60,491 bases of DNA, filler included, from Sphacelaria rigidula (GCA_964200075.2; 9 parts of 9 records of this genome joined end to end with filler, not necessarily neighbours in it); one strand, 5' to 3'. Positions 7,115 through 55,310 are shown, numbered from the whole stretch's first letter. The notes: generated by a model not told the origin, from the sequence alone. Program-made: numbers and translations.

Positions 7115-10100
7115 GACATCGTATAGCTCGCTCACACAGTCACGTTCGGATCTGCCGGATGAGATCGGAGCTATGATGTGGGTCGCGCAGTACAAACCCA
7201 GCATGTCAACGTATATTCCGCTCTATGTCGGCATCGAAGAGGTGAGGTCTGTCACTGTGCGTCCAAGTGTCCCAGAGAGAACCGACGCTTTCGAATCGTT
7301 CTAATTTTCTGGCTTGCCTCCACAGGGATCGATGCCGTGGCAATGTATGAACAGTGTTTCCATGATTGTCGGCACACGTGGGCACGTGTCTACAGAGTAC
7401 GAGTGAGTACAAGTATACCATATGCAACAGTTTTGTGTGTTGCAATGCTCGGTCAGTTTGCGTTGTAGAGCTACAACTGCGTGCACGATACCCGTGCTAA
7501 AATCTTGGAAACTGCCTCACACGACTGCCCCCCGAATCCGTGAAACCGACCTTCACCGTGCATTTTCCCGTTCCAGGTCCCTCAACCGTACACCATCGGC
7601 TCCCTGCTACGGTTCAGCAAGGAAGCGTCGTACTGGGCCTTCAGTGTGGTGGGCAACTGGGCGGAACGCTACCGTATGTTCGCGCACGTCGACGTCAAGG
7701 CTCAGCAAGAAGCTCTGGAGAAACCTCTCTTCGACAAGCAGGTGCGGCGCATAGCTATGCAGGTGTTGTACAAGTGTACGATTACCTTGCGACTGCAAGC
7801 AGGGAAATCTGTGCCACAACACTTCTTGTGTAGAATAATTGTGTTTGCTTACTCAGGATGCCGCGCCGTGTCTCGAGTTGTTGAGTAGTGGAGGTGATCG
7901 AAGTAGCGCTAGTAAAGACTGGATCGTCATTTCTCCGGGTTGAAAACACGGTAATTTACACGTGAATACAACCGGCGACTCTAAAATGGAGCAATGATCG
8001 CCAGGATCACTCTCGAGGAGGAATGTCAATAGTCACCTCCGCAGTATTGAACCCACCCTTCATTTCTACCCTCCGCTGCCGCCGGTGGGGCTCTACGGCA
8101 GTAATTTTCCACAGCGCGAGAAACGCAAGCATCTCCACTGGAAGTGTCTATTTTCGCAGGTGTACACCAAAATGTGTGCATCCGCCATGGAAGGGCGTGC
8201 CGAAAGTTTGCTCAAGTTGCCCAATCAACGCGCATTGTGTGCTGGAAACATTCGACGCTATCTTTGGTTATATTTATTCTCCGTACGTTGTAGTCAGTGT
8301 TGCGCATCTATCCACGCTTTCAATATACCACTGTATACTTGTTCAACAGGAAGAACTAGAGAAGAAGGCAGCTGGTTTGGTTGAGAGCGGTGATGTGGAA
8401 GATGCCATGGCGCTTCTTACAGCTCACTCGAACTCTTCCGCGGTCGCAGCCGTGTCCGCCTACCACACTCTTTTTAACACGCTCGTGGCTAGATACCACG
8501 ACGGAGCCCAGATGCCGGTAAGTTCATTCGTATCTTACACGCCAAGAAGCACTACGGATCTACTAGAGGACGTAGAGTCTATTTCACTGGTTCGCCTTGT
8601 GTGATATTCGAACGTGGTTATGGTAGGGTACCCCGAGGTATTTGGAGGGTGAGTATACATTCGGCAATCGATACCCTGGAGTACTCAGCATTCTCGGGAA
8701 GCGCTGTCCTGCGTGTCCCGCAGTACTCAATATTCCCGCGGGTCCTTACGTTGCGCATCCTAGAGCTTTGTGACTGTGAAATAGGGAATAGGAGGGAGGG
8801 GGGGGGGGCGTACTCATTTGTTGCTTGCCCCAGTCGTTTGACCATCGACCACGCATCCCCGTCAAAATGGAGCACCGTTCCTCCTCCCAATAGAGACACC
8901 CCCAACATTTCGAAGCACATTACTTTTCCTATACATTACACAAATGTTTTTTCCTATCTTATCCCTGTCCTGCACCTCCGTCTTTGGCGATCTTTCTGCT
9001 AGTATAGCCATCGTTGTTTCGCTACTGTCTAGTGCATCAAACGATTTCATGCCACCTTCGGTCACGTCCCGCATTTCGCCCTCTAGCACGTCCCGTTCGT
9101 CCTTGTATGGTTCACATTTTGCCACTATATGAGTTTTACGATCTGTTGCTTTGCGACAGGGGTAATTCTGTGCATCTACTCCCCCTCCGCTTGACTACTG
9201 GTATATCCGTTTCTTCTTTTTGGCAGGTCCAGGTCCCCCACCCGAAATCGCAGTTTCAATCTCTTAGCGGAGTCCTTTGGGCAGTGCAGATATGTTTTCA
9301 TTTCTATCCCCTCTGTCAACCCCCCCGTAAACCCTGAGTTGCTCTTCCTCGTCTACTTTCCGCCTTTGCGCTTCTTATCCCCTTATTTCTGTGATGTCTC
9401 ATACTTTTGACTTGTACCCGCCGCATTCACCTATTATGGACATTATCTCGTCTTCGTTTCCTCAGATCTCCTTCCATAATTCCTCGTCTACTCTATCCCA
9501 CCTTATTCCAGCCCGCCCTTTCGTCATTTTCTTCCATCCAGCCCTATCAACTATGGCTGGCAATCTCGTTTTTGTCATGTTCTTTACGCCGTATTGCCAT
9601 TTCAGTTTTCTCATGCCTCTGTTAGTCTTAAGTGGGTACATTCCCAAGTCTTCCCTCAATGCTGTATCACTCGTCGTTTTTGAGCATCCACGTATGTTCT
9701 TAGCTGCTTTCATTTGTACTGTTTCCCAACTTCTTCACCAACTTCATGTTGCTCTCCCATCTCCTGCATATTCCAGCATTGGTACAATCACTTTCATTAA
9801 AATACATATCTTGATCCTAGAATCTGGGTACAAGTCTCTGAGGATCGCGACCATCCCGCCCATCTACACCTTACCCTTTTCTATTACTTCATTTATGTGT
9901 GCATTCGAAGAACAGTTTTTTCTATATCTCTACGCCAAGGTATGTATGATGGTCTACGATCGACAGTTCCTCATCTCCCCACTTCCATTTGAAATTTGCC
10001 GGGTTTTTCTCATCACCGTTCCATACAAGTACCGCGCATTTGTTTACGTTTGCTGTCAGTCTCCATTTCTAAGCGTGTTCTAGCGCCTTCTCTATTTGCT

Positions 10101-12918
10101 TCTGCAACCCTTCTGGTGTTTCTGATATCCCCATAGAATCTTACTCGAACATCAATCCTGATGCCGCAACTTTCCTCACCTTGACTCCTTACTTTGCTGC
10201 TTCTATTGCTATTATCAGGTAATTGATGAATAGTTTGAATAAAGTGGGTGATAATGTACATCCTCGTGCAACTCCTCGTAAAATATCAAAACATTCCGAT
10301 ATTTCCCCCTCTAGCATTGTGGCACTTATGACACATTATATCACCTTCACCATTCTCCACGTCTTTCCCCTGATCCCAATCTCTCACAACTTTTTTCACA
10401 CCCCAAATAGACGGGGGAGGGGGAAAGGCGGGGGGTTCACCCTACTGACATGCTTCCTGTCTATACGTTAAATACAAACATAGCTGCCCATAATAACCAC
10501 GTTCAACGAACTGGTACGTTGAAGCACCGTACATTCGACACATCTCTGTATACCCAGCACGACGGCGAACCTTGAAAAATTCCGTTCATTTCCACATATC
10601 TTGACGTAGTTATTGGGGAAAATCAATAGTCAAATAGAGAGTTTCGGAAACCGTATAGTCGCACTTTAGGGTCAGAACGGCACATATTCCATCCTGAAGA
10701 AAGGTTCAGGATAAAATTTTCAGGATGTATTGAGCAGGCATCGAGACCGAAAAACGTCGGATTGTTAACCAGCCTTCCAGTACAGATGACGGACCAGTAC
10801 TGGGCATGTACCCTGAAATACTCAGTTTTTTGTGTCGAAACGCTGGGTACCCTGGAATATTGAGTGTTTGCGACAATCGATACCCTGGGAAACCTGAAAA
10901 CTGATTATTCTGTGCAGCTTGGACCCTAGGGGCCCGAGCATACTCAGTACTTCAGGTATAAACACCAGGTACCTGAGGGGTAGGTATCCAGGGTACCCTG
11001 GAATACTGAGTGTTGTTGTCGATCGGTACCCTGTATACCCGAGGTACTCCGTACTCCACGTACCACACGGGGTTTTTCGGCGGGCCGGTATCCGAGGTAC
11101 CCCATGACACTCAGTACTTTGGGCAGTTAGTACTCTGGGTCGTGTGGGGTACTGATCATCTTTGGCTGTCGATACCCTGCGTACCCCAAAAATACTGGGT
11201 GTTTTCCGTAGTCGATATCCGTACGTACCCTGGGGTACTGAGTTCTCGAGATACCCTGAAATTCAGGATACCTCAGCGTAATCTACCCCCAATACTTAAT
11301 TCAAGAATTTCCGTTGAATGACGCCCGTGAAGCTTGGAGAGGACTGTAGAGGAGGGTCATGCCATGAGTAGTAGAGCGGCTAAAAGGTTATGTGCCTTAT
11401 CCGCCTAAACTGAGAATGCTGCCCTCTTTTAACTTAGAGAGAGCATGTTTGCACCGTAATGGTGCTCCGATAGTCATTGCCTAGTTGTGCACCTTTCCGA
11501 AACTGCAAGCAATCTAAACCAACAACCCTGCCTTGAGCATCAAATTAATTGTATGCTATATATATATTTTCCATCGTGTGCCGCCGCCCCCCGGTCGCCT
11601 AATGACGATGCTGACATGATTTGGGCGGGGTAAACGCGGGTTCGATTCCCGCCAGATGCGTCTGTCTTTTTTTCGAGGTATTCGATTTCCGTCGTTGAAA
11701 ACGTGACGACGTCAGTAGCAAAAATAGTTTGTTTGGGAGGCTTTCTCAAATGACACTTGACGCGGTGCGGGAGTGCTGATCCAACCCACGATACTGAAAT
11801 GTAGGGCGTGCACCGTGGGATAGATGGGTTGTTTGAAACCACGGACTGGTTCCGAGGAAGGAGCGGAGTTTCAGCTGGGGAAAAAAAAAAAGTCGGTGCC
11901 CCGTTAGACTTGAAGTGAAAATGACAGACGCGCGCGTGGTTTCCTCGGATACAGGACGGCACCGCCGAGACAGTGCAGTTCAACATGTTCTTCTACCCCA
12001 AGTTTTGGCTGGAGGCGGTCGGCTACTTCCACAGCAGACAGGTACGCGAGCAAACGCCCGATCCAACCAACAGCATCGCCCTGTGTATGGCACCCAGCGT
12101 CAGTGTCTAGTCAAAACCAGCGAATTCAGTGGGTTTTTCCCATCCCTGACGCCTTAACGACGATTTACGTGCAGCGCTTGGGGTATCACTTGGTTCTACA
12201 TGTAGGTAAGGGGGTTCGGCCGGCTAGAGCGGTGTGTGCAAAAGCAGTACAAACCTGCGTCCCGCAAAATAACGGAAACACTAAGCTGTGTCTCTACACA
12301 CCAGCGTCACTACACACCAGCGATACGTTTTTTTTCGAGTGTCGGCAGAGACGCCAGTGATGATAGTTGAGACGTTGCAGGAGCCACAGGAGCTGAGATG
12401 CAGTTCGCAGGAAGTGCCACATACAGCCATTTTTCATTCGCGACTGCTAGCATAGTACAGGTCGATGGGGTCAAGCCGTTGACATCTTGAAAAAGAATAC
12501 GAACTGCCCTGAGAGTGTTTCATGCTTCGTTTACTTCGGAAACGTGTGGTCAGCGATTCAGTCGCCATATATAATTAGCGACCGATACTTTTCACACACC
12601 GGTGTCTCCCGCTCAGTCACTCCGTCCCATGATATTCCTGCGCTTCCAATCCGCCATAAACAGGATGACGAGGCGGCTACAGTGGCAGTGGAAGCATCCT
12701 CCGGTGGACAGGAGGGCGTTAAGCACCCCTCGGGAGACACCACCAAATGTCCTCCCCCTCCAGCGGCAGGGCCACCTGGTGCCGCTATAGTCATAACCCC
12801 GTCTTCGTGGCAGGCCCGTGCCGGTCTAGCCATCGGGGCTACATTTTTTGTTGTTATTGGTATCGTATTGGGGCGATGGTCGGCAACTCGCTCTGGATAC
12901 GCTAACCTCGCGTACTAG
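7115..12918 (+). CDS. Peptidase family C69 (dipeptidase/secernin-like), 3' part, with C-terminal transmembrane anchor
   Basis: Five GT-AG exons in consistent phase: 7115-7241 (TSYSSLTQSRSDLPDEIGAMMWVAQYKPSMSTYIPLYVG), 7577-7741 (VPQPYTIGSLLRFSKEASYWAFSVVGNWAE), 8350-8517 (..FNTLVARYHDG), 11955-12041 (FFYPKFWLEAVGY), 12664-12918 (Pro-rich linker, TM, stop). Motifs match the C-terminal half of C69 dipeptidases. The 5' exons lie outside this contig. Confidence 0.85.
8798..10400 (-). mobile_element. 5'-truncated, decayed non-LTR retrotransposon (RTE/RTEX-like ORF2) in the C69 intron
   Basis: Minus-strand translation with stops and frameshifts gives RT motifs (GVARGCTLSPTLFKLFIN, GLQKQI, ANVNKC, YLGV), TALREDLG and a C-terminal Cys/His motif (THIVAKC). 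It ends in the structured tail followed by C11. Confidence 0.9.
10790..11285. repeat. GGTACCC/GATACCC/AGTACT-rich degenerate minisatellite element
   Basis: Recurring GGGTACCCTGGAATA(C/T)TGAGT and TCGATACCCT units; related patch at 8625-8745. Confidence 0.6.
11585..11865 (+). mobile_element. Probable tRNA-derived SINE
   Basis: B-box GGTTCGATTCCC at ~11639. The body (TTGACGCGGTGCGGGAGTGCTG ... ACCACGGACT) is shared with 35690-35795 and partly with 42725. Confidence 0.45.
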
Positions 12919-13774
12919 TTATATCGGGAAGTTTTGGCGGCCGGAAGACGCCCTCGTTCTGTGGATCTGATGTAGTTAGGGTATTGTTTGTGAAGTATGT
13001 GCTTAAGTGGTCCACACACCTAGATGTTGAGGTGTGACAAACGGCTCTAGCTGGCCTTCGAGTCGTCGTGCGTTTTATCGCGGTCTCTCGGAAAAGCCGT
13101 GTGTGGCGTTGGTGGCGTCGGCGCTGTTGTTCGGTGCTGTAGCCATTGTTGTTGCCTTGCAGTGCAATTGCTTGGCTTTTAAGTAGCTACGCAATGTTGT
13201 GACAAACCATGCTGTTTGGTGACTTTGTTTTGTAGAATTCCGCCCAAGGCTCGGAGAATCTTCCTCCCTTTTGGGTATTCGCCGAAAAATCCTAGGGGGG
13301 TATACTCATGATCATGCATGCCATAGTCATGGGACCATTGACCTCGCATCCCTACAAAGCCGGGACNNNNNNNNNNNNNNNNNNNNNNNNNNNNNNNNNN
13401 NNNNNNNNNNTTAATTAATTAANNNNNNNNNNNNNNNNNNNNNNNNNNNNNNNNNNNNNNNNNNNNGGAATGGCGCAAAAGTTGCGTGGATGCCCCTTGG
13501 ACCAGCGATCCCCTTTTGTCTCCCTTTTGGGCAATCAAGCCGCAGAAATCGTGAATTTGGTGATTTTGAGTCGTGATGATTTGTCCTGACCGTGCAATCT
13601 TGTAGGTTTTTAGTCCAAACGCCCGTGTCTTTTTCAGGTACCATATACGCCTCCAGTCATCATCCGCCGAAAATATTGCGGAACGACCGGCGGACATCTC
13701 AAAACAGAAACCGTTCAAGGGTTTGGTTGTGAGAAAATACCTCGTCACCACTTTTGCTCGCGTCTCACGAACAG

Positions 13775-20550: not shown

Positions 20551-21051
20551 CGTAGCTCCCATAGCTCTTTGGGCAATCATGCGTAGCTCATGTAGCTCTC
20601 ATAGCTCATCCAGGGCAAACATGTGCAGATGCTACGTCCGGTCGCTCACCCAGGGCAAACCTGTGTGTAGCTCATGCATCTCTCATAGCTCGTCCAGGGC
20701 AAACATGCGTAGCTGATGCAGCTCTCATAGCTCACCCATGGCGAATATGAGCTGATGAGCTACGGGCTCGTAGCTCACCCAGGACGAATTTGAGCTGACG
20801 AGCTACGGGTTCGTAGCTCACCTATGGCAAACGTGTGTAGTTCATACAGCTCTCATAGCTCACCCAGGACGAATACGAGCTGATGAGCTAGGGGTTGGTA
20901 GCTCACGTAGAGCAAACATGTGTAGCTCATACAGCTCTCATAGCTTACTCAAGGAAAAAATGCGTGGCTCATGTAGCTCTCATAGCTCACAAGGGAGCTG
21001 CGCTAGAAAGAGCTAGCTCGAGCTACAGGGAGCTGATCTGTCCGACGTGTG
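20551..21051 (+). repeat. AGCT-rich 42-43-bp tandem array plus right terminus of a TIR element
   Basis: About 11 units sharing TAGCTCACCCAGGGCAAACAT. The terminus GGGAGCTGATCTGTCCGACG is identical to 45082-45101. Confidence 0.85.
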
Positions 21052-23173: not shown

Positions 23174-23421
23174 GAGTTATCCTACGATAGGGGGGGTATT
23201 TTGAGCCACTTCTTGCACGAAATTACAAGTCAAATCGCCGTTGAAAGGAGCAACGGTTACTCGAACGAGCTTGTTATAGATGAATAAGGCTCATTCATAC
23301 CGATTGACATCGCTTTGAACTAAATACAAGCGCACCACGAGTATGGCAAGTCGTCTGACACACTTTTGAGCCTCTATTTTCGTGCAACCAAATACCCCCC
23401 CTCCCTATGGTAGGATGACTC
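23174..23421. mobile_element. MITE, 248 bp (empty-site copy)
   Basis: TIRs GAGTTATCCTACGATAGGGGGGGTATTT / AAATACCCCCCCTCCCTATGGTAGGATGACTC; colinear paralogue at 25646-26105. Confidence 0.85.
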
Positions 23422-25645
23422 GTACATTCTGCAAGAAAGGGGTGCTGGAGAATTGCACGAACATACAGCACAAGGTTGTCAGAGTTGCGGTTTGTGGGTT
23501 GCAGGAGCTGGGTGTTGACATGTAGTTTATGCCAAGAACCGGCGCAACCACCAGCAGGCAAAATTCAGAGAAGAACGTATCTGGCAAAATTCGGACGTAG
23601 ATGATCGAACTCGTCTTCACACCGCTGTTTCGGAGTGGCATAACGGCTGATTTCGCCTCAGTAGCTATTTCCTAGTTGACGCTCCCGGCATGTGTGCACG
23701 TAGCGTCATTGCTGCGGGAGGGGGGAGTCATTGCCCCCCCCACCCCCCCCAGGCTCCCCCCGTATCACCACTTTTATAGTCCGATAGTGAACGACCTATT
23801 CTCTCTCTCTACAACATGAGGGAACGCCTTGGAACAATATCTCGGAGGGCGGGGATTAGGCTGCCCAATAGTGCGTCGCATCATCGATCAAAAACAAAAT
23901 AAATCGATGACTTTGCAAAGTAAGATTGCGAAGCACTTATTTTTCGTGCACTGTTGCACCTAGCCTTCTTGTGCGAATATCTAGTCTTAGTAGTCAGCGA
24001 GCACATGATCATCCTTGAGCAGCGAACACGCATGAATCGTTCCGCCATCAGAAGGTAGCAGGAGTCAGAGTGCGATTGGAATTTTCGGTTAGACGTGGTA
24101 ACGCTTACGAATGGCTATCCTCCATTTTTAACACTCCCCAAAATGCCCAGTTTCACAGCCTCCCCAGTATCATACAGCTAACCACGTATCGGTAATATGC
24201 TGTGAGCATATCTCCCACGGGAGATGCTGAGTGATTACACTCCGTAGTTTCCCGTATCTGCCGCGCGTCGACGCCAAATCGATCACGTAAGGTGCCTCCG
24301 CTATGGACTTCCCGAGGCAGGGTACGAGTGGGCATTTTATCGACCGAGGCTGATCGAAGTCCATCCAGTGAGGGGAGGGCGCAAGAATCGAAACTCTGCA
24401 GCTTTCACGAGTGCTCGCCGAGAGCCCAGCACCAAACAAAGCAACCGTGTCTTCATACAGGGCAGAGGCCGGAAGCTCAACTATGTATCAACGTCCCTGG
24501 AGGGACGAGAGGGGATTCGAGTAAGGAATAAATCCGGAAGCGACTGGCTTCACGGAGCCATAGGAGGAGCGATATGGCGACTGCAGTCCGTCACCCTGCG
24601 GCAAACGTGCCACCTGTACGGCTCATACAACATTTTAGGTCAAACTGTAGCATTGGCGATACCGATGCCAAGCAATACAACACAATGTGGCATGGTGCCT
24701 CAGCAGACGGCGTGTGGATCAGCGGTAAAGCTACTTTGAAGATTCTTGCAATATATATATCGGGTCGACGAGCTGCAGGAGTACGGAGTCGGGTGGAAGT
24801 AGGTGCTCATACCCCGTGGTATCATCGCGTACTGACTCACCAAACATAACGATAGGGAGTCATGTACGCATGCTGCAACCGCGGGATGAGGTGAAGTATG
24901 CCGCATGCCGAGCAGCGAAAGAGGTGAAGCTCTGCGACGCATACTGAGCTGAGAACGCCCCCGTGCTTGCAACATAAATGGAACTCAGCTGATTGAGACG
25001 AGATGCCGAACCTCCTGAAATAAGGTCGAATCGTTCGTTGCAACATTTGTAAGCACCAAACGGCCAGTTTGGGGATGCACCGCGGACCGTGTGGCAATAA
25101 GTACCTGTGCGGCCAGGAAAAACATTACAGCAACCAAGACTTGACGAGAGCTGATGATGCCAAGTACGGGCAAGCGACGAGGGAAAGTGGAAACATACCC
25201 AACGATGAACATAATGCGTATGGAGGCGCCAAACGAATGGCACGGTGGTAAGTTTGTCGTCATAGCGTCCCGTTTAACACGGTCGAAGATAAATGTTGAC
25301 GCGGAGATGCACGTTCGTACCGCCTGTTGGAGCCGCAAGCGTTCCATAAACGGACGAATACCCTAGTCTCGCAAGCCCAGGTCGAAAATGCAATGGGAAA
25401 GGACTGCACGTGAAGCGTGCGAACATTGTCTGAAGAGCGTGGCGTCGCTCGACACTTCGTTTGCGGTAGATGATCCATAGGGTCGCATGCGTGACGCACA
25501 TCACTTGTTGAGACGAATAATCAAGAGCAGTGGGTGAAACGAGGGCTAGCGCGGGTAGCGAGCTCGCACAATGTCGGATATTAGTACTGAGAGAAGCCCC
25601 AGTTATCTCAAGAACCACGAACACAAATGGATTCTATGCACTACC

Positions 25646-30293: not shown

Positions 30294-30339
30294 TTAGGGT
30301 TAGGGTTAGGGTTAGGGTTAGGGTTAGGGTTAGGGTTAG
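30294..30339 (+). repeat. Interstitial telomeric repeat (TTAGGG)7 TTAG
   Basis: Perfect hexamer run; a shorter degenerate run lies at 27749-27767. Confidence 0.95.
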
Positions 30340-33502: not shown

Positions 33503-33560
<58 letters not shown>

Positions 33561-37028: not shown

Positions 37029-37070
<42 letters not shown>

Positions 37071-37783: not shown

Positions 37784-37816
<33 letters not shown>

Positions 37817-39133
37817 CTACCGTGCGAAGCGTCTTCTGGAGATGCTCATGGAAAAGGAAAACACGAAAATCAGCGTCAAATTCGTTGAGAATTGTTGGGT
37901 CGCGATTGCCCAAATTGTTGATCATTTTGACACCCCATTTTGGCTGGCATTTTGATGATTGTGACCGATTTTCGGCCATGAAACGTCGGACACAGCTTGC
38001 CGTGCGGCTCTGCAGTGTACGAGGAAGCGTATTTTTCTCGTTTTTAATAATCCAAGAAGGGAATTTGGAAAATATAAAAATTATTCGTTTTTGGCGATTT
38101 TGTTCGAACTTCCTGTTTTGTTCTGGAGGGGGGCGTTCTCATTTGTTGCTTGCCTCAGTCGTGTGACCATTGACTTTTTTTTGGATGGGCGGGGGGGGGG
38201 GGAGCGAGAACATCTACATTCTGCCATCTTGTGGCCGACGACTTGTCTTCGAGCCTTCGCCCACGGAGGGTAGTGGTGAAACACGAGAAAACGAGAAAGA
38301 CTTTCGACTAAAAAATGCGGAAGATATCGAAAACAGTGTGGCCTTTTACATTGGGCACGTTGAAGGGATGTTTAGAAACAAGTATAGAGATAGCTGTACG
38401 GTACTGTACAGCCCAGTACTGTACTGCAGCTTTCATCAAATACCCCTCTTCCCTATTTTCAGCCCTTTGACTGCGCATGTGCTCTAGTCATTCTCCAGCG
38501 AGTTGATGCGTGCCCTCTTCTTTTTTTATTTGCTATTGTATATTAGTAATGCACGAATGATATATTACAGCAATCCAGGAGTGTCTTCATCTTGTGGATC
38601 GACATTCATTTTTTACTTTGGAAAATTGATTTTTGTAGTCAGACTTGTGGTGACCCATCTGTTTGCACTCAAAGGGTTTGGGATTTCATCGTCAAAGGGT
38701 TATACACATAATGATCATATAATTCGTAAACGTTTGATCGCCCATGCTTTTTTTTCGGAGATTTTGTACGCTGACGGCTCCGCAAGTTTCCGACGGGAGT
38801 GATGCTGCGATAGCCCCTCCCACGCCCCCCCTCCCACCCTCCCCAAGGGGTCAAAAAATGAAGTGTCACGAAAAATAGCCACACGGGGGGGCATCGAGAT
38901 GATGGGTCGTTTCAGAAAATAGGTACTGGAATTTATTATGTAGGATGCAGATATAGCTGGTTTCACAAAGCAGATATGTAAATTTTATCATGAAGAACGC
39001 AGATTCAAGCTGGTCTTGGGAATCAGTTTTTCGAATTTGTTCTTGTTGGATGCAGGTATAGCTGGTTTCAGAAATCAGGTCCAAACATCTCATACAGGTT
39101 TTTGCCTCGGTCCGAATTACACTTTTCTGAGGG

Positions 39134-39177
39134 GGGGTGTACTCATGACCTTGCATGCCACAGTCATATGACCATAA
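39134..39177 (-). mobile_element. 44-bp family-B 3'-end insertion with 11-bp TSD
   Basis: TTTTCTGAGGG at 39123-39133 and 39178-39188. Confidence 0.85.
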
Positions 39178-40133
39178 TTTTCTGAGGGAGAGGAGACGAG
39201 GGGGGGCGGGGGGCGGGGGGACTGCCGCGGCATCACTCAAGGACGCCTTTTTTTGCTCCAGCGGAGATGAATGTTCAATTGTACACGGGTGATTATAGCG
39301 GAAGTGATGCAAGGCTCAAAAGAGGTTCGGTCAGTAGGCGCATAGCAGCATTTTTTCCATGGAGGGAGGAGGCAAACGGTGCGCCTTTCCCCTTGTATTG
39401 TTGACCTTGTACCCTTCTGCTGCTCTTGCATGCGTTGTGGACTAGAGTCTTGGCATGTATGCACAACTACTGTTGCGATCACTCGTACTTACTGATTTTG
39501 TTGTACTGAGAAATGACAGTATGCTGCTGCTTTGCTGCTGCTTGTGGCTTATACGACGAATAATAGTGACGCGTGGCATATGCGTGGCAACGACGCTTCT
39601 TATGCAAGCTTTTGTCTGTTCACCAGAGGCACCGGCTTCGAAGCCTCGCCCGTTCAGCGTCCACGTAGGGGTCCGGTGCGTGAAAAGTCTAAAATCGAAA
39701 TGTTAGAAGGGCGGCGGTCGCTATGTTGTATGTCGGATTGACTACTTGTATGACATGTAAACCGCTGACGAAGCCAGCAGTACAGGAGCAGGCCCAACCA
39801 TGGACTGCTCGGGAGGCCCGAAACTCTCATGATGTCTTCACCATCGAATTTACGGGACCCTAGGCAACAGTTCTCAACGGTGCAAGAGCTCCACGTAACA
39901 CGAGCCGCTCCGATACCTGTTATCAACCATTAATGTTAGAATTATTATGAATATTATTTTTATTACCTCCGCACATTAGGCCGACCTCTCAAACCCGTGG
40001 TCACAGACGTGGGCTCGTCTTTCCAATACCGACCTGCTTTTCCTTACAAGAGAAAGAGCTCCCACTGTTTTCCCTGAGACTTTGAAAAACAAGGTAAGAA
40101 TGGCCCCACGATAGCCCCCCCCCCCCCTCCCAG

Positions 40134-40297
40134 TCGTACGTTATCACCCACTTTGTTCAAGGTATTCATCAATGACTTGATAATAGCAATAGCAAGGGGT
40201 TCAGGTGGGTGAGGATATGGTATCAGGATTGATGTTCGCGGATGATTTTGTGGGGATTTCAGGAACACCAGAAGGGCTACAGACACAGATAGACAAG
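40134..40297 (+). mobile_element. LINE reverse-transcriptase fragment
   Basis: TLSPTLFKVFINDL ... SGLMFADDFVGISGTPEGLQTQIDK (catalytic FADD); same family as 8798-10400. Confidence 0.85.
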
Positions 40298-40501
40298 NNN
40301 NNNNNNNNNNNNNNNNNNNNNNNNNNNNNNNNNNNNNNNNNTTAATTAATTAANNNNNNNNNNNNNNNNNNNNNNNNNNNNNNNNNNNNNNNNNNNNTGG
40401 ATGACAGCCTACAATGAGTTGCTTTATTTTCTGGTATCGCCACTTCCAGAGACAGCCGCGGCTTGTACACTACCTCATGGGTGGCTCGCCATGGTGAGGG
40501 A

Positions 40502-40812
40502 GGGGGGGTGTACACATAATCTTGCACGCCGTAGTCAAATGACCATTAACCTCGCATCCCGACAAAGCCGGGACGGAGCACGCCGGGGTTTTGCTGGACC
40601 AGGCTCGCAGTCAATCACCAAGCGCGAAGAGCCGTCATGTTATGGGCGAATCGCATGAACGGCGGGCTGCATCGTGCTGAGATTGTTCGGCCCGAAGTGT
40701 ATGGATTATCTTGCGTATGGATGACAGCCTCTTATGAGCTACTTCGTTTTCTGGTATTGCCACTTCCAGAGACAGCCACGGGTTACACACTGTCTCATGG
40801 GTGTCTCACCGT
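40502..40812 (-). mobile_element. Family-B element (~310 bp, probable SINE) with structured C-tailed 3' end
   Basis: Tail shared with 13295-13366, 39134-39177, 47157-47248 and 53699-53760. Its 5' ~95 bp is repeated at 40398-40492. Confidence 0.6.
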
Positions 40813-43605
40813 TTCAACACTATGTGGTATGATCATCCCGTTCGCGTGGAATGGAGGTTCTCTCACCCCGCACAAATGATCTAGCTCGACCACCATCATA
40901 GATATTGCAAAAAAACATCTGGACACTCTTTGATAGTTACCAGCTTCGGAGAGACGTGTCGGCACCCTCCAGTAGCTTCGCCGCCGTATCTTTTTCCATG
41001 CCCAGATAAACAGCTTGCTTCAACAGCTTGTCGCGCGGCAACAGATCGTTCCTGGCAAGCATCGATAATCGCGAATAATGACCTAATAGATCCATATATG
41101 TTGGGGAAAATTCCGTCGACGAAAAGAGGCGAACACATCGAACAGGGAATGTGAAGGACCGGGGCGCCCACATGAGAGAGGACTCCACAGTTTGTGGAGG
41201 AAGACCAAATGTTAACATTACACTGTGTATTGCACACCTCAACACTCGTACGCTAAATACCACCCTCGCAAATGCCACCTCCACGTGATAGAATTTTCGA
41301 TTTTCATGACATATGCTCCCTAGGTGTGTCGGAGTACGTTCCTCGGTTTTATCCCCTTGATATTCGCTGCACCAACAAATATCCGTTGAATGTTGTAATC
41401 AATAGTACGGTAGAGGCGCTACCCCTGTGAGGGGTCCCACTATAGTGCGGCTTCCCACTCAGCGCGATCAAAATCGTCACACGTCCAGTCCGATACTAAA
41501 ACCAAGTGATTACACTGTACCAGTATCGAGCGCGGGGTCCCGGCATAGTGCGGTCGGTCATACCGGGCTGGCGCCCTACCGCACTACGCTATGATCCCCA
41601 CTGTTCTGTGTCGTGGCACGTAGTATACCACCCCCTGAAAAAGTAATGTTGGGTCACGACAAATATTTTCGGATCCCAACTGTCTTCTCCCCACCCGCGG
41701 GGGAGTGTGTACTTACACAAGACGCAAACAATCTTGTTCTGACCTCCACAATGTTAGCATTCAAACAATCTGGCGATCTTCAACGACAAAAAAAAAAACA
41801 CAGAAAAGGCAGCCCCAAAACTGCTCTTCTGCCCACCAGGCCACTGGCATTGCCTCACGAAGGGATTCGCCTCACCGAACATCGATTGAAGATTTCAAGT
41901 GGCACGTGGCAAAAAAGCGAGGTGATGATAACCCGACAGTTCGCTTGCAATGTACAATATATACTGCAGAACGGCGCGAGCTAGGTGTTCGCTTCTGGTG
42001 GAAAGTCTTTCGATGTACTCTTCTTCCACCTGTGGAAAGGAATACAAACGTTGTGGCAATGCAACCTTTTTTTATAGGGACTTCTGCGCCCCGGTGGTCT
42101 CACGGTACAACTGACACTATTCGTTCGGGGCAGGGGCGGCTTCCAATCCCGGCCGGATAAATTTGCGTTTTTGATCGTTTTCATTATCTTTCTAGAGCTA
42201 TGTTTGACACTTGGTTTATGAAGAAAATTATCAGAAACATCCACACCTTGGACAATAAATATATGGCCAATAGTTGCAATAGACAAGAAATATCCTGCGT
42301 AAAGTATATATCCTTGTCTATTGCAACTATTGACCATATATTGTCCAAGGTGTGGAGACATCTTTTTCAAAATAACGCGAACCCTAAGCCTTACCCCAAC
42401 CCAAGGCATACCGAGAACCCTCAGGCGATGGGGGGGTGAAGTGTTCCCTAGGCAGTGTGTGGCTTGGCAGACTTAACACGGCGCCCCAGGCGCCGATTTT
42501 GACGGAAACGCGTTCTGCGCACACGAGGAGCAGCTGAGGCTGTCAGCCCTGCGAAAGACCCCGAATATCGGTGCTTACACTCAAATCAAGTAAAGAAATT
42601 ATGGGGAAGGTTCTAATCGACCAAGTGGTGAGCACTACTGTTTTGTTTTGTTTTCGAATCTGATTTCCGCCATTGAGAACGTGAGAAAATGTTCGCGGGA
42701 AAAAAGCGTCTGTTTGACGAGAATCGACGCGGTGCGGGAGTGTTAGTCATGATCCATGGGTTGCACTTTCGCAGGACCCTCGAAGATCGGTCAAGCCCGT
42801 AAATCGCAGATTTTTTTTCCTTTCGATATTTGTCAAGAGGATTATAACATCTCCAGATCACCATTTTTTGGCATCCAACATTCACCGTGATCAGCGGTGG
42901 CAAGCAAATTTGTTTTTGGAAAGTCTTCCAAGTAACGAAGAAATTACGAATTCCGCAGACTTTTCTGATGCTTACTACTGCAATGTACAAACGGTCGCCC
43001 GTAGTGCGCATGTCGTGATATTTTGATGTGTTCCTTACAGCGGCCACCTTCCGCGAACGAACGAGCTTGTGCTGTGAGCGGTCTAGTTTCACGAGCTGAA
43101 TAGCAACGCCCACAGTTCTTGCCAAGGCACTACAACACTGCGTAAAACGAGCTTCACGAGGTGCTCCTTTCCTTGTTCTGTTGTGCGTACATTTTTCACA
43201 CCCTCTACAACAGCGGTCCCAGCGTACGCACACCATCAGGCGGCTCTCCCCCAGTCTTCGCCGCCGCTTGAATACGTTCAAGCTATGCAATTGGTCAGCT
43301 TCACGGTTCGGGCGAATCATCGCCGGTTCGAATGACCAAATCCACGATATTTCAGGCCTGATTGCCCGAAAGAATGAAAAAACTCGACCGCTGGTCAAAA
43401 GAGGTCTCCACGCATTTTTTGCGCCATTCCGCGTGCCTGGGCTGCGCGTACCTGGGTTGCAACGCTGAAAAGAAAGCTCAAGGATTGATTCGTACGGTAC
43501 GAATCAATAACACTAAACTCAAGTAGCTTCCAGACGACTCACTAATTTGTCCAACCCTTGGTTAGCTTGAAAAGCTCAAATCGAGAACCGTTCCAGGGAG
43601 AATTG

Positions 43606-45101
43606 CACACGAAGGACAGCTCATGAGCTAGCTCATCTACAGGCGGTAGCTCACTTGTAGTCAAACATGTATATGTGAGCTACGTCCGATAGCTCAACAC
43701 AAGGTAAACGTGCGCTGATGAGCTACGAGTTGGTAGCTCACTCAGGACAAAGATGCGTAGCTCATGCAACTCTCATAGCTCACGCAGGGCGAATATGAGC
43801 TGATGAGCTACGGGTTGGTAGTTCACCTATCGCAAACGTGCGTAGCTCATACAGCGCCCATAGCTCACTCAGGGCGAATATGAGCTGATGAGCTACGGGT
43901 TGATAGCTCACGTACGGTAAACATGTGCAGCTCATGTAGCTCTCACAGCCCACCCAGGGGAAACATATGCGGATGAGCTACGCTCGATAGCTCTCTCAAG
44001 GCAAACATGTGTCGCTCACGCAGCTCTTGTAGCTCACCCGGGGAAAACATGAGCGGATGCGCTACGCCCGGTAGCTCACCCCAGGGACACATGTTCGTGG
44101 CTCATTCACGTCATATGCCTAGCTCGCCGCTGGCCTACCCCGTGTCGCTTATGATGTGACATTCTTGTTCGAACGGGTGGCGCCACATATCATTAGGTTG
44201 CGATGTTTTGCCTCACTCTTCGCGATAGAAAGAAAAAAAGCCAAAACATATCCTCGTTCGCTTGGTCGGATGGTTAAAAAAAGTATTAATATTCAGTGTC
44301 AACAATAATCGACCGATTCATTTCTTTTCATCGGTTGGCCGCGAGGGTACGAGTCTATCTGTAAATGCATACGTTTTCCAAGTTAAATTGGAGCCGATTC
44401 AGGTGACTTATGCTCGCCGTCAAGGGGTTAGCCCTTTGACCGCGAGGGTTGGCGATCTTATAAATCAGCATGATTCACTTGATCTTTCGGGTGTGAATTA
44501 TGCCGATTCAGAGACCTCCTACCCTCGCGGTCAGAGGGATAAGCAATCGTAGCTCTCATGGCTCTCATGGGTCATCCAGGGCAATTATTCGCAAATCACC
44601 TAGCTCTCATAGCTCATCCAGAGCAAACATGAGAAGCTCATGCATGTCTCACAGCTCGTCCAGGGCGAACATGTGTAGCTCACGCATGTCTCATGGCTCA
44701 TCCGGGGCAAACATGCGTAGCTCATACATCCCTCGTAGCTCACCCAGGGCGAATATGAGCTGATGAACTACGGGTTGGTAGCACATCCAGGGTAAATATG
44801 CGTAGCTCATGCAGCTCTCATAGCTCACCCAGGACGAATATGAGCTGATGAGCCACGGGTTGGTAGCTCACCTATCGCAAACGTGCGTAGCTGATACAGC
44901 GCCCATAGCTCACCCAGGACGAATGTGAGCCACGATGAGCTACGGGTTGGTAGATCATGTACGGTAAACATGCGTAGCTCATACAGCTCCCATAGCTCAC
45001 CCCGGCAAAAACATCCGTAGCTCATGTAGCGCTCATAGCTCACTTGGGAGCTACGCTTAAAAACAGCTAGCTCGAGCTATAGGGAGCTGATCTGTCCGAC
45101 G
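43606..45101 (+). mobile_element. ~1.5-kb non-autonomous TIR element with two AGCT-rich subterminal arrays
   Basis: Left end CACACGAAGGACAGCTCA matches the reverse complement of the family right end (CACACGTCGGACAGATCA, complete in the copy ending 21051). Arrays at ~43617-44100 and 44549-45045 flank a unique core. Confidence 0.7.
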
Positions 45102-47859
45102 CTTAAAAACAGCTAGCTCGGGTAGGGAGTGGAGGTTGCACAGAAAACCGTACTCGTAATCGGGTATCTTATAAAGAGCGTACCCGTGCCCCCCAGTAAC
45201 GGTACGGGAATCTTACAGAGATTTCAGAACTATCGGGTAAGGGTATGAAAGGCTTACAGAGATTACAGAACTGTCGGGTACCGGTATGACAGTCTTACAG
45301 AAGTCACAACTGTCGGGTACGTTGAATACTCGGCAAAAATACCCCGGGAAAACAGAAAACCGTACCCTACAGAACACAACCTTGGAAAATACCACCCCCG
45401 AAATTACGAGCCGTAAGAAACGATCTAGGAAATGGTTCAGGACACGCTCTCATGTTCAGTTTCGCCGAATGAACAGGATGGAGAATGACTTTCGAGCTTG
45501 TACAAATACCGATATCTGGTGTCAGTGCCTCCGAAGAGACACTCACCGTCAATTTGTAAGGTGTGGTCAATCTAATCGAGCCCGATTCCGTAGAGGGCAT
45601 TTTTTCGGAGGTCCTCTACGAAAACTGGTCAAAATGATGTAATTGTATGCGGTCCGTCAGAGTGCTACGCTGTGCTGTATCAATAACGCACGTGTCAGTC
45701 ACGCCTTTCCGACAGTTTGGAACACCAATTGATTTGAACACCTTGTTTTCAGGAGGAGTGAACGACAACTATATATCCACGCAATGTGATGATTGCACGC
45801 TTGATCGAGTTCGTTGAACCCACCCTGAGTTGATTTTGAAATCGGTGATCGTACTACGTCGCCGGCGTAACATGTAACACTTTGTTCGATCTACAGTCAG
45901 TAGTAGTGTACAGACAGCTATCAGACACCAGCACCCCGTGTATCGGATGTTATCAGTTATAGTCACAACTGTGTTGGACTATACGAGATGGGCACTGGCT
46001 TTACTATACTGGACTGTACAGACTTTGCTGGCAATTCAGCATGGGGCCACGCACAACCGCTTGCACACCTGTAGCGCGATGGCAACTTTGCGCCCGATCC
46101 CGCCTTCTCTCAAAGCCTCCAGCGCTGACGGTTACGCTACCAGTAGTGCTGCCAACGAGCGCGCTGCGTGGCCGTATCATGAAGCTTTGACACAGACAGC
46201 AAAGCTTTAGCGCACCCATGGTTCTGCACCAGAGCATCCATCTCATGTCGGAGTGCTTAGTCGCAAAAGACAGTACGTGTATCGTGAAAGTTGATCTCGT
46301 CGCTACTACTTGCTGACTGAATAACTTGTTTTCTGTCGCATGAGTACCTTAACACATATGCCGCATAATCAGGTAGACTGACATTATCCCAATATCTTCA
46401 GCCGATGTAATTGTATTTATACCTGCGCAAGCAGATTGGCGGAACCTCATGGCAGATTAGAACCAGTTCTGCATGACATTTATTTGTGCAGACCCGCCTG
46501 TCGAACCAACGCTACTACTTTTAAATTCCATGCGCGCACGTGCCGGCCCTGCTGTGCGCGCAGCGCAAGGCTAGCAGCCAGCCGACGACCCAGCTGCTTT
46601 TATGTGTACAGATTGATTGTTATTGGACAATAAGACACTACCGCACAGCGTTGTCCCCAACGCAAATGCGGCCACGGGATTTTTTTTCCAAAACACCAAC
46701 GGCGGCCCTACTTCTCCTCACGAAACTATTCCCTCTTCAATCATTTCGAGAGCTCGAAAAAGCTCCCAAGCAGTTTTTGATGAAAGCCGAAGGAAGCCGA
46801 CGAGAGCATCCTCCTCTCACTGCTCACCTGGTGAGAGCCGTTTCGAATGTGCAAAGGAGACGCATGTGGCTTGGGAAGTCGCAGCAACGAGGCGCGACAA
46901 GGCCAGCTATAGGGGGGAAGTTTCAACACCGAATAAGATCCTTTGTTGGTTTATTCCAAGGGTCGGACAAATAATGATTCGTCTGGAAATTACTTGGTTT
47001 TAGTATGATGAGTCGACTCGTGACGAATCNNNNNNNNNNNNNNNNNNNNNNNNNNNNNNNNNNNNNNNNNNNNTTAATTAATTAANNNNNNNNNNNNNNN
47101 NNNNNNNNNNNNNNNNNNNNNNNNNNNNNCCCCCCTCCCTCAAAAACTAGAAAAAGAAAACCCGGGGTGCTCCACCCCGGCTTTGTAGGGATGCGAAGTC
47201 AATGGTCTTATGACTATGGTATGCATGATCATGGGTACACCCCCCCCCTCAAAACTCAATTTTTCGATCTTGGGGGCTACGTGTCCCGAAATCTTGTCCT
47301 CATAGCTCCCCGCTTCACCACTTCTTCTGTAGTCTACTTCTCTGTTTTCCGTTTCTCCATATTTTTCTATATACATATTAAATGTGTGCTCTTTCCTGCC
47401 GGTGTATGCCAGAGCAGCAGTGTGGTACTTCGCTTCATTGTGCTTCTTCATGGGGTAGAGGGTCCATACCCTAACTAGAGCGTTTGTAGTAGATGAGCTA
47501 TACGTACAATATTTTCCTTTCCCCGGTCTTCCGTTTCCCACGACTCGGCATAAGCGAGGTCCTGCGCAAGACCTTTTCCGCCGAAACCATGTGGCAGAGA
47601 CCAGTCATTCCTCTCTTTACGTTGCTTTGCTTTTAATTTTATTTCTTCTCTTTTTGTTTATTTTCTTTTTTCACGCGTTTAGCCTACTATATATTGTCTT
47701 GTTCTACCTTTTCTGTTTCTTCTTTTTTCTTCTACGAGTGCCTCAGTTTTGTTTTGTCTCGGGTACGTTTATCATGTGACCACGACTGGATCCCTGGGAG
47801 ATCAGCTACAGTAAAGTGCGGTTATCAATAAAAAACAAGTCATAACAGAGGACCCAAGA

Positions 47860-52403: not shown

Positions 52404-52439
<36 letters not shown>

Positions 52440-55310
52440 CGGGGGTGGAATCAGAGCAAGGCTGTCGCTAGGTACTGCTGAGGTGAACGCGTTCACCTTT
52501 CGCTCGTGATTTCATAGCTACTGCCATATTTGCTTAGCATGTTATCCTTCTATATTTTGGAACCCAACTTTCGTGCGTTTTTCTCTCCTCTGTGTTCAGT
52601 TGGACCTTTACGGTCAAGAATTGGCACGGTACGTGCCGCCGGGCACATAAGTAGCGCAGGAAGTAAGCGGATAGGCATTCTGACATCTCTGGTGCTGACG
52701 TGTGATGCATTGTTGAACTCTGTAGGGATGTGCACAACGCACAGGGGACCATGCGTACCCCAGGACTTGCTACATGTAATTCTTTCCACGTTGTGATTTG
52801 CGGTTTGTCCGAGGGACCCATCACCCTTTTTTTTAACGTCGTTTTCGATCGTGTTCTATCTCATGACTCGTGGCTGGATTCCTTTGGGAACAGTTAATGT
52901 GCGACAGTCAATGGAAGGGAACCAACCCGTCACGATTACTCATGATGACGGGCAGGAGAAGGTGTTTCTATTCTTCGTGTTTGAAGCTCTAAACCAATCT
53001 TGAAAACTGAAACATGCGTGCAAGATGTCAAGATTATTCTTGCTCGCTCATTCGTCAGCCCTCTCCGCTGGATGCTGTACTTCTCGAGATCGAATCCCTG
53101 GTGCTCAGCCGGGTGATCAAACACGGCGGCAAATTCCACGACGCATGTACGGCAATGCACGATATAAATGTGTGCTTGTCAACCTCCTATTGTCTTTTTG
53201 CGAGGATGCTTCTGGTCCACCGCTGTATTGTTGTGCGACAAGCATGGCATCTTCGCGCGCCGGTCTCGGCGTGTTTTTTTGTCGATTTATCTCTGCGCAC
53301 ATCACTTGGGAAACCATCCAAGTGAAGGTTCCAAAATATTCTCAGCTCAAGTGACCCACAGAGAAACCCCTGCTAGGGCCTGCTCTTATCCTGGATCCCA
53401 TTTTCAATGTAAAAAAAGCTTGAACCGAGTCTTCAATGTTCGTGGCCTGAAAATCTCTGCTGTACGAGTACATGCCTTAGGTTCCTGCTGCGAGTTTTAC
53501 GTGAAACTGAACATTTTTGTCCTCTCGTGAGGAGTGGCATATGCTCTATCTCGGTAGCGGCATCGCACACACTCCCGGTCAGACTAAAACCAAGCAAGTA
53601 CGTCTCAACCAAATGAGAACTTGTCTTATGTTTCTGGTAAGATGTATTCAAGTTTATTTTACATTTTTTTGCATTTCAATCAAATTTCAAGGGGGGATGG
53701 GGGGGGGTGTACTCGTGATCATGCTTGCCATAGTCATCAGACCATTGACCTTGCATCCCCNNNNNNNNNNNNNNNNNNNNNNNNNNNNNNNNNNNNNNNN
53801 NNNNTTAATTAATTAANNNNNNNNNNNNNNNNNNNNNNNNNNNNNNNNNNNNNNNNNNNNCGTTTGCAGCAATTTCGCCCACATGAGATGCGTGTAGCAG
53901 TTCGAAATCAGCTACGACGCGACTCATTGGGGCGTTATAGCTGATTTCGAACTGCTACACGCATCTCATGTGGGCGAAATTGCTGCAAACGAGCCCAATA
54001 GTAGGATCGCAGCCTGTTTGTCGGACAGTCTCCGGTGCACTTTCGGTGGGGGGGCTATCTCGGCATTAGTCAACGGCTCTCGCAAAATCTTCGCCAAAAA
54101 AACACCATGGATAAGGCGGGCTATACGCTTGCAACATGGAAGTAGCAATCAAAATAGCGAGGCTGGCTGTAGAGTAAATTACCACGCGAAGTGGAGAGAA
54201 CATATCTAAAAATGTAGAAAGCGAGAGGAGAGAAACGGCAGAAAATCAAGGGGTACCCTACGGCAGACAGGGGAAAACAAACAAACAATATGTGAGTCCA
54301 TGAAAGGAGAAAACGACGTAAAGAATGCATTGTGGGCTACGACTGCCAAACGAGGAAAACAAAGTGTAGAGAAAGCCGCAAAAATATAATAATGGCGGAG
54401 TAGGAAAGTGATGGCTATTAGAAAACAATATATTGAGGAGGGCAAGCGGGAGAGACGAAAGCGTATGGAAATGGCCGCAAATAAGAACAGCATAGTAGGG
54501 GAAGAGGTGACTAATGATATGAAGAAAAACAGAAGACAGAGGAAGCGGAGAGGGAATCAGCAACGGAAAAAACAAATAATAGGAGAGGGGTAACCCCAGA
54601 TCACTGACATGGTATGACGCGATACCAAATAAATTTGATATGACTTCCGGCATTGCGCAGGTACGTTCAGGGCGAGCAAAATCGAACAGCAAAAGCGGCA
54701 GGGGCGGACGGGGGGGCGTAGTGTCAGTGCGGGCTTTCTGATGTTCGTGTGCAATTCTGAAACCTCAAAAGAAATAAAGACGTAAATAGTAGATAAAAAT
54801 ATAATGAAATTAAATTTAAAATAAACAAAAATTTGGGTCACTGTGGAGGGAAGAGTAAATCGCAACGCTACAGTAGAGGAAGGGTGGACAAGACAAAATT
54901 ATCAATGCGTGAGCCCGGCATATGATATCTCACACAATCGGTATCTCTACTGTTGCCGAGCAACGGCACTGGTTGCCTCAAGTTTGCCGATGTGAAGAAA
55001 CCACGATGCCTCCGTAGTGTCGTGGCGAAAAGTTGTTTGCCCTATGAAGTGACGATAGGTTGCCCCATGACGTGAAGTGAAGATACCTCTTGTTGAGTAG
55101 ATGTGATGTGTCGAACTGTAGGCCGATGTGAAGATACCAGTGTAGTGGCGACATGTTGTGACGTGGAGCGGAGGCGAATCCAAAACGACTTGACCCAAAC
55201 AATGTCTTTTCACGATGCCGCACATCAATCAATTATTCATACTAGGGGCTTTTCGTCATTGCCGGGCGTAGCATGTTTTTCTCCCCCAGGGTGAGTGCAG
55301 CACAGGTGCT

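Follow-up and report, generated by a model that had tools for sequence, protein, structure and literature searches.

Tail copies of two related repeat families

The stretch of DNA analyzed here (the window, 60,491 nt in full) consists of nine contigs of the Sphacelaria rigidula assembly GCA_964200075.2, 6631-6633 bp each and in descending order of size, joined by linkers of the form N44-TTAATTAATTAA-N44 (at 6634-6733, 13367-13466 and onward between the remaining contigs). It contains copies of two related repeat families, A and B, which share a 3' tail that ends in a run of C and never in poly(A). Family A is, by its domain content, a non-LTR (long terminal repeat) retrotransposon of the apurinic/apyrimidinic endonuclease (APE) type, i.e. 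a long interspersed nuclear element (LINE), with one long open reading frame (ORF); family B is the size of a short interspersed nuclear element (SINE). Judged by what it encodes the window sequence is eukaryotic, since it carries LINE and LTR-retroelement ORFs, an ankyrin ORF, a calreticulin-like exon and a (TTAGGG)n stretch.

A profile of 92 positions, made from the tails themselves and used to search the window with nhmmer, yielded exactly ten copies with E values between 2.2e-8 and 2.3e-23, the next match being at E 3.7. The aligned copies represent one homologous 3' tail in two versions, five belonging to family A, which ends in ...GGGATGCGTGGTCAATGGTCAAAYGACTAAGGCAAGCAACAAATGAGTACG, and five to family B, which ends in ...GGGATGCGAGGTCAATGGTCNNNTGACTAYGGCATGCATGATCATGAGTACA; the original prediction, made from the window sequence alone, had counted about ten 3' ends in two related families. 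At their 3' ends all ten copies extend to the last profile positions (89-92 of 92) and their 5' starts differ, as is expected from 5' truncation. The nine ends that are visible read GAG(T/A)A(C/T)(G/A), followed by C11, C6, C5 and C6 in family A and by C6, C7, C7, C9 and C9 in family B. Poly(A) is absent from all nine, and the prediction that visible ends consist of a GAGTAC(A/G)-like motif and a C5-C11 run thus holds throughout the window.

The long family A copy (8794-10423, minus strand) is a 5'-truncated, decayed LINE with the element at 8809-10414, C11 at 8798-8808 and the target site duplication (TSD) CCCCCTCCC at 10415-10423 and 8794-8802. A 197-nt 5'-truncated copy on the plus strand (25880-26091; nhmmer E 7.4e-22) comprises the element at 25887-26083, C6 at 26084-26089 and the TSD CCCCCTA at 25880-25886 and 26085-26091. 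The 69-nt copy at 35794-35885 (minus strand, E 2.3e-23), which consists of the tail only, has its element at 35806-35874, C5 at 35801-35805 and the TSD CCCCTTCGTTG at 35875-35885 and 35794-35804. In the 47-nt copy at 38128-38180 (minus strand, E 1.4e-9) the element occupies 38134-38180 and C6 occupies 38128-38133; there is a C12 run (38191-38202) 17 nt further upstream, and CCATCCAAAAAAAA and CCTCCAGAACAAAA may tentatively be regarded as a decayed TSD. The fifth copy of this family, at 6734-6830 (minus strand, E 7.4e-21), has lost its last bases and C-run at the contig start, and its 5' end lies near AACGGTGCTCC.

Two family B copies have lost their 5' part at a contig end, namely 13295-13366 (minus strand, E 7.1e-19; element 13301-13366, C6 at 13295-13300) and 53699-53760 (minus strand, E 1.8e-13; element 53708-53760, C9 at 53699-53707). 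Two others are flanked by TSDs. These are a 40-nt copy at 39123-39188 (minus strand, E 2.2e-8; element 39138-39177, C7 at 39131-39137), with CCCTCAGAAAA at 39178-39188 and 39123-39133, and a 94-nt copy at 47137-47254 (plus strand, E 1.6e-20; element 47146-47239, C9 at 47240-47248), with CCCTCAAAA at 47137-47145 and 47246-47254. The last is a copy of about 330 nt at 40398-40838 (minus strand, E 2.3e-19; element 40509-~40838, C7 at 40502-40508). All of the positions originally listed as 3' ends proved to belong to copies, with the correction that 25886 and 47157 mark 5' junctions of plus-strand copies, the C-runs of which actually lie at 26084-26089 and 47240-47248.

Coding capacity of family A

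The long window copy is decayed, with 29 stops in one frame over 8809-10410, and its reverse transcriptase (RT) domain, RVT_1, was recognized at E 1.4e-6 and 28.6 bits, just below the cut-off of 29.6. A HMMER search of 1.84 billion representative proteins with this RT part gave 7050 matches at E <= 0.001, and in 8 of 12 longer RT relatives scanned among these an Exo_endo_phos domain was found upstream of RVT_1. The APE domain is absent from the window copies, all being 5'-truncated.

Further copies came from a scan of public collections for the tail pattern, which identified three metagenome contigs (L001-L003) and two contigs in genomes filed as bacterial metagenome-assembled genomes (MAGs), and gave no matches among viral contigs. 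One of three matches in genome contigs, located in a Lactobacillus gene (L004), was rejected as a chance match, as were two of five matches to GAGTACRCCCCC in the MAG G001 (L028 and L030). The MAG-filed contigs contain the LINE, family B copies and other LINE fragments, and we take them (L011-L014 and L032-L035 in G001, L012 in G002) to be eukaryotic contamination of the bins.

In L012 (5259 bp), one of the MAG-filed contigs, the ORF is intact and encodes a protein of 1382 amino acids, P0152. The protein has an Exo_endo_phos domain at residues 193-415 (E 8.1e-11; Exo_endo_phos_2 at E 1.4e-7), RVT_1 at residues 763-1012 (E 6.7e-32) and, as read from the sequence, a CX1CX8HX4C (CCHC) motif near the C-terminus. 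There was no RNase H match in P0152, the first ~190 residues matched no Pfam family and a separate ORF1 was not seen. In tblastn, residues 852-1382 of P0152 correspond to the window copy 8809-10414 with 50-64% identity, and the tail of the 69-nt window copy is 100% identical to that of L012 over 69 nt; the window family A and the L012 LINE are therefore the same family. Family A had been predicted to be the end of an RT-encoding LINE, which the alignment to an intact ORF with APE and RT domains bears out. Reconstruction and classification of a full-length element, proposed at the same time, succeeded as regards such an ORF and fell short as regards its class, for among PDB entries the P0152 RT matches human L1 ORF2p (2e-21, 78.6 bits) and R2 (8e-21, 76.7 bits) alike, a score that does not discriminate L1 from R2. 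When the endonuclease domain alone was compared with the PDB no significant match was obtained, the best relevant one being an exodeoxyribonuclease at E 0.34.

The TGA stop codon of P0152 is situated within the terminal ATGAGTACG and C13 follows directly after it. Since the stop sits inside the terminal motif, family A is practically devoid of a 3' untranslated region (UTR). Four further external copies have open frames of 177, 177, 177 and 92 codons, with no internal stops and the same TGA.

Target site duplications and target preference

The four TSDs originally reported are exact repeats at the junctions named, and a fifth, CCCCCTCCC, was newly found at the long family A copy at 8798. All five are exact and 7-11 bp long, and each begins with C3-C5 and then T and is preceded by T; CT stands before four of the 5' TSD copies and TT before the remaining one. 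The 3' junctions of the five pairs hold 1, 4, 1, 6 and 6 more C than the 5' TSD copies, and the C-run is consequently partly target and partly brought or created by the element.

Junction statistics are based on 18 visible junctions, nine from the window and nine external. In all 18 GAGTAC(G/A) is followed by C, the run being C4 or longer in 17 and C1-T-C4 in the remaining one. Poly(A) tails, which the original prediction had named as evidence against itself, are present at none of the 18. The first base after the C-run is T at 12 junctions, A at three and G at three, and C occurs at positions +2 to +5 past the run at 8-10 of 18 junctions vs. about 4 expected. As for the predicted target, AGGG^AG or CT^CCC(C)T in element orientation, all five TSDs do start with the C-run; the exact motif is found in four of them and the overall pattern is looser, so that a C-run within a pyrimidine-rich tract describes the target preference more accurately.

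For one insertion the empty site is available. The 197-nt family A copy sits in the C-run of the right terminal inverted repeat of an element resembling a miniature inverted-repeat transposable element (MITE). A paralogous MITE end without the insertion (23340-23440) reads ...AAATAC-C(n)-TATCGTAGGAT, as do both left ends, and the CCCCCTA duplication is confirmed by this pre-insertion sequence. The MITE-like element itself is about 230 bp in length and occurs at 23174-23402 and at 25646-25886 plus 26085-~26110, the second copy hosting the insertion; a G/C run is embedded in each of the terminal inverted repeats (ATCCTACGATA-G(n)-TATTT ... AAATA-C(n)-TATCGTAGGAT).

Family B as a SINE-sized, putative partner

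Family B is about 330 nt long and non-coding, and shares with family A only the last ~55-60 nt, comprising a small hairpin, GAGTAC and the C-run. Homology among family B copies of the window and the G001 contigs spans at most ~200-330 nt, with unrelated sequence upstream. At 40398-40490 the 5' part of a second family B copy starts 11 nt past the C-run 40502-40508, so that two copies are arranged head to tail; the direct repeat 40398-40490 / 40718-40810 supports such a pair, as aligned with external family B copies.

RT matches adjoin none of the B tails in the window (tblastn) or in L032, and the idea that family B might be the end of a second LINE was dropped because L032 has no RT beside its B tail. 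ARAGORN found no tRNA genes in the window, and an Rfam search at E <= 1 of the ~330-nt window copy and of L032 and L035 gave no tRNA, 5S or 7SL match, although highly diverged heads could be missed. The SINE label originally applied to family B is appropriate in that its copies are short and non-coding, have a 3' tail shared with a LINE and are flanked by TSDs (the copies at 39134 and 47157); the part that did not hold is the Pol III-derived head, as none was found. On account of the shared tail and the identical junction features, including TSDs that start with CCCT in two copies, family B is most likely mobilized in trans by the machinery of family A.

Conservation of the tail at the nucleotide level

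Four family A copies with 80-96% nucleotide identity were compared pairwise over their last 177 codons (six pairs). Overall dN/dS is 0.22-0.39. In the last 30 codons dS is zero in all six pairs vs. 0.12-0.97 in the preceding 147 codons, which indicates that the tail is constrained as nucleic acid, and the same tail positions are conserved in the non-coding family B. A short hairpin can be drawn for the tails of both families (UGGUC-loop-GACUA, lengthened by GUC/GGC and UGC/GCA), the loop of which varies; of the cells of the hairpin alignment 94.2% are paired, and seven of the eight main-helix pairs vary on one side only. We read the tail as a cis-acting recognition signal, with the hairpin as a putative structure.

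Abundance, 3' bias and tail arrays

Contigs of four public runs (X1, X3, X4 and X6) were placed on L012 at a likeness of at least 85%, giving 82,399, 54,091, 94,040 and 4,578 pieces, respectively. In X1 the likeness is 99% or more for 9,631 pieces and 95-99% for 23,709; the many pieces at 99% or above indicate that family A is large and includes very young copies. Summed contig depth, which is not copy number, amounts in X1 to 4.38 million in the tail bin, 1.01 million in the next bin and 0.02-0.47 million in the body, where one bin with a variable linker stands apart at about 32. The tail bin exceeds the next bin in depth by a factor of 3.5-5.9 and most body bins by a factor of 9-200, and every one of the four runs shows a clear 3' bias. 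The ~500 nt upstream of the ORF (4262-4752 in plus-strand coordinates of L012) are as repetitive as the LINE body, with a summed depth of 0.22-0.46 million in X1, and are probably the 5' UTR of the element or a remnant of an ORF1; they also include a weak inverted tail-like segment. Another bin of L012 (3697-3872), a low-complexity linker, is nearly single-copy.

Loose contig ends accumulate at the end of the tail. At place 95 of L012, the end of the 13-base run, they add 12-16 G on the plus strand in 1420, 671, 1407 and 97 contigs of X1, X3, X4 and X6, respectively. At places 96 and 97 they read A and then a long G-run, which on the element strand is C-run, T, C-run, with C/T-rich sequence beyond. 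A sharp boundary at place 173 +/- 2 delimits a tail-only unit of ~79 nt that follows a long C-run and T (378 contigs in X1 and 315 in X3), and the window copies at 35805 and 6734 are tail-only units of this kind. At least 141, 48, 115 and 10 contigs of the four runs have joints that connect places 171-175 with places 95-101, a step back of 73-81 bases, and there are 1363 further joints beyond those listed; the joints going back 73-81 bases are head-to-tail arrays of the ~79-nt tail unit. An HDV-like or hammerhead ribozyme was considered as the source of the sharply bounded unit and set aside, since an Rfam search of L012 60-400 at E <= 10 gave no ribozyme match and nothing meaningful on the tail.

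Within the window, contig ends fall inside A, B or LINE repeats at no fewer than five places (6734, 13366, 40297, 47130 and 53760), which suggests that these repeats are abundant enough to break the assembly. The window also shows a surplus of G/C homopolymers, with 36 runs of at least 7 vs. about 4 expected, and among runs of at least 12 there are nine of G/C vs. two of A/T. At most seven of the 36 long G/C runs are tails of families A and B; the remainder, without an obvious common upstream motif, may represent tails from further families, targets or runs that have expanded. Examples of long runs are C23 at 76-98, G18 at 33747-33764, G20 at 37632-37651, G31 at 37786-37816 and G36 at 52404-52439.

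Proposed mechanism and alternative explanations

The explanation we favour, with a probability of roughly 0.7, is that family A is an APE- and RT-encoding LINE whose template carries a C-run tail and which inserts by target-primed reverse transcription at G-tracts, with family B as a partner mobilized in trans. The observations on its side are the constant 3' end, 5' truncation, TSDs that start with C, a surplus of C at the 3' junction only, the conserved tail and the nesting of tails, together with insertion sites of the sequence T^C(3-5)T, in element orientation, inside C/T-rich tracts. According to this model, the endonuclease would nick the opposite strand 3' of the G-run (5'-AG(3-5)^A), and the freed 3' end of the G-run would pair with the C-run of the template RNA. 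The RT would recognize the conserved ~90-nt tail and begin reverse transcription there, and differences in register together with slippage would account for the varying length of the C-run. Because each new copy brings a C-run, new tails may in turn serve as targets, leading to head-to-tail arrays and more long G/C homopolymers.

Several points weigh against this explanation. The set of TSDs is small (n = 5), and at two junctions there is just one extra C, so that the part of the run borne by the element can be very short. In three of five external family A copies G takes the place of T behind the run, and pyrimidines do not predominate in the flanks (L012: GTTGGGGG...). For the L012 copy, which is full-length, a search allowing up to 3 mismatches revealed neither a TSD nor a 5' end. 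For family B no tRNA, 5S or 7SL head was found, and its dependence on family A is deduced solely from the shared tail. The hairpin alignment contains no compensatory changes and shuffled alignments score equally, and the tail does not fold more stably than shuffled sequence (z = -0.27). Among the loose ends of the public contigs, consensus agreement is low (0.35-0.5) and contig depth does not equal copy number. Finally, none of the public runs is listed as RNA, X6 being RNA at best by guess, and contigs cannot show RNA ends, so that the 3' end of the RNA, the specificity of nicking and the priming step are deduced from DNA.

A more far-reaching version is held only tentatively, at somewhat less than even odds. 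It holds that family A represents a LINE lineage of recent activity and extreme abundance, in which the template RNA has oligo(C) at its end and both endonuclease and RT act on G-tracts, making it a true G/C mirror of L1. In this version a 3' UTR is missing because the last 30 codons contain the RT recognition signal, and the family seeds G/C homopolymers and ~79-nt arrays.

One possible alternative, which we consider unlikely, is that the same LINE makes its C-run at integration, the RT or a host enzyme extending the nicked end by untemplated G (or the RNA by C), without any C/G pairing. Untemplated addition by LINE RTs is known for R2. The run length does vary among near-identical tails, with C5 in the 69-nt window copy and C13 in L012 next to tails that are 100% identical, and three of five external family A copies have flanks that start with G and are not C-rich. 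However, such length variation can be explained by homopolymer slippage as well, and all five TSDs begin with C3-C5, which places a G-run at the primer end and fits pairing, whereas untemplated tailing alone leaves the C-run in the 5' TSD copy unexplained. The notion that run length tracks the age of a copy was dropped in view of the same identical tails with C5 and C13.

Still less probable is that the C-run is target DNA throughout, the element ending at GAGTAC(G/A) and entering long C/G homopolymers that already exist, with slippage giving the 3' surplus. Such homopolymers are common in the window away from the tails, flanks often continue as C-run, T, C-run, and the two junctions with a single extra C would be accommodated easily. 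Yet slippage should go in both directions and the surplus is on the 3' side in five of five pairs, never on the 5' side, and reaches 4-6 C; in addition, targets with only CCC yield C7 and C9 junctions.

The arrays could also be viewed as the primary structure, the ~79-nt units being a satellite spread by recombination or concatemers generated by RT template jumping, and the C-run preference partly a by-product of the arrays. The many head-to-tail joints with a period of 73-81 nt and the sharp 5' boundary at place 173 +/- 2 after a long C-run and T would suit such an origin, which we nonetheless regard as very improbable: solitary copies with their own TSDs lie in unrelated sequence (the 69-nt family A copy and family B copies), one copy sits in a MITE end with a clean duplication, and arrays are expected anyway if tails are targets. 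Satellite spread or template jumping may contribute to the arrays, without explaining the solitary TSD-flanked copies.

That the G/C runs at element ends are an artefact of sequencing or assembly, e.g. poly-G of two-colour chemistry, is scarcely credible in spite of the frequent contig breaks at A and B elements and the very long G runs of the window (up to G36), because the run follows element orientation (C on plus-strand copies, as at 26084-26089 and 47240-47248, and G on minus-strand copies), the same tail and run are found in six independent public assemblies and the TSDs overlap the runs exactly.

Comparison with known retrotransposons

LINEs usually end in poly(A) or in short A/T-rich repeats, and priming is understood best where a T-tract pairs with poly(A). 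In L1, which has a poly(A) tail and a TTTT/AA target, the nicked T-tract anneals to poly(A), and tail and TSD run into one another. Family A resembles L1 in having an APE endonuclease, an RT and a Cys/His motif after the RT, as well as in 5' truncation, TSDs of variable length that start with the base of the tail, so that tail and TSD merge, and older tails as targets. It differs in that the tail is C and not A and the target run G and not T; the combination of poly(A) tail and T-rich nick site typical of the L1 clade is not seen, with poly(A) at none of the 18 junctions and TSDs starting with C. Unlike L1, family A also has no 3' UTR or visible polyadenylation signal and no separate ORF1 was seen, and its last ~90 nt are conserved at synonymous sites, which suggests "stringent" tail recognition rather than recognition of poly(A).

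Stringent recognition is characteristic of LINE/SINE pairs such as UnaL2/UnaSINE1 of the eel, and short-repeat tails are characteristic of CR1/L2-type elements. Like UnaL2 and UnaSINE1, families A and B share only a 3' end of ~60 nt with a small hairpin and a short repeat of variable length, and lack poly(A). In contrast to that pair, they have a repeat unit of one C only and a non-random target (a C-run plus T), the ORF includes the tail, and family B has no recognizable Pol III-derived head. RTE-type LINEs have a single ORF, a very short 3' UTR, A/T-rich repeat ends, no poly(A) and no C-terminal zinc motif. Family A is similar in that a single APE and RT ORF runs almost to the 3' end and poly(A) is lacking, but in P0152 the RT is followed by a Cys/His motif and there is an N-terminal region of ~190 amino acids.

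Annealing to the target or nesting in tails is known from R1Bm and TRAS/SART of Bombyx and from Zepp of Chlorella, elements with a defined repeat or gene target and poly(A). As in R1Bm and TRAS, pairing of the template 3' end with the nicked target would set the start of reverse transcription in families A and B, where such pairing is only inferred, and as in Zepp, nesting into their own tails gives arrays. Unlike all of these, families A and B use dispersed G-runs and carry a C-run. We know of no system among those compared that combines a homopolymer C tail with a G-run target, and no report of a C-tailed retrotransposon was found in the full-text literature, a search that lay outside Repbase and Dfam.

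A C/G version of target priming, if true, would represent a natural experiment on the co-evolution of tail, endonuclease specificity and RT initiation, which swaps of tail and target could address. Of further note is that the recognition signal overlaps coding sequence (dS = 0 in the last 90 nt) and that one family yields both tail-only units and arrays. As its contig pieces number in the tens of thousands in a single alga-associated genome, the family is likely to be a main driver of repeat content, and likely also drives assembly breaks and the surplus of long G/C runs, which are potential G-quadruplex/i-motif sites. The tail is at the same time a sensitive marker of the DNA of this eukaryote, and exposed eukaryotic contigs in two genomes filed as bacterial MAGs.

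Other features of the window

Three further LINE fragments, all on the plus strand, were identified by tblastn with P0152. The one at 40138-40297 is an RT fragment of family A type that corresponds to residues 902-958 (E 2e-16), matches 10087-10259 by blastn and lies at a contig end. The other two belong to a related second LINE family and cover what follows the RT as far as the CCHC motif, with 36-54% amino acid identity to P0152 there. They are found at 27340-27911 (or to 28045; residues 1052-1242 with 36-79% identity per piece, also seen by blastn), where no tail is visible, and at 30338-30791 (or to 30897; residues 1098-1253). The sequence at 31270-31318, ...GAAATGCATA followed by C6 (31313-31318), might be the tail of this second family. 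Directly at the 5' end of the fragment 30338-30791, a (TTAGGG)~8 array was detected by TRF (30293-30339), which could reflect insertion into an interstitial telomeric tract or the healing of a break.

Rfam at the gathering threshold gave no match across the window, and the dinoflagellate spliced-leader motif was not found in it. The end of contig 1 (6580-6633) has the look of a tRNA-like A-box (TGGCTCAGTTGG) without an ARAGORN or Rfam call, and might head another SINE. A satellite with a period of ~85 bp (half units of 42/43 bp) occurs on two separate contigs, at 20571-20989 and 43689-45043. Large near-perfect palindromes are located at 2739-3223, 53861-53991 and 55677-56045 (self-inverted blastn matches of 493, 133 and 392 bp, respectively), and a GC-richer contig (54-58% GC) encodes LTR retroelement ORFs of the Ty3/gypsy order, with zf-CCHC, RVT_1 and Integrase_H2C2/rve domains, at 56883-60489.

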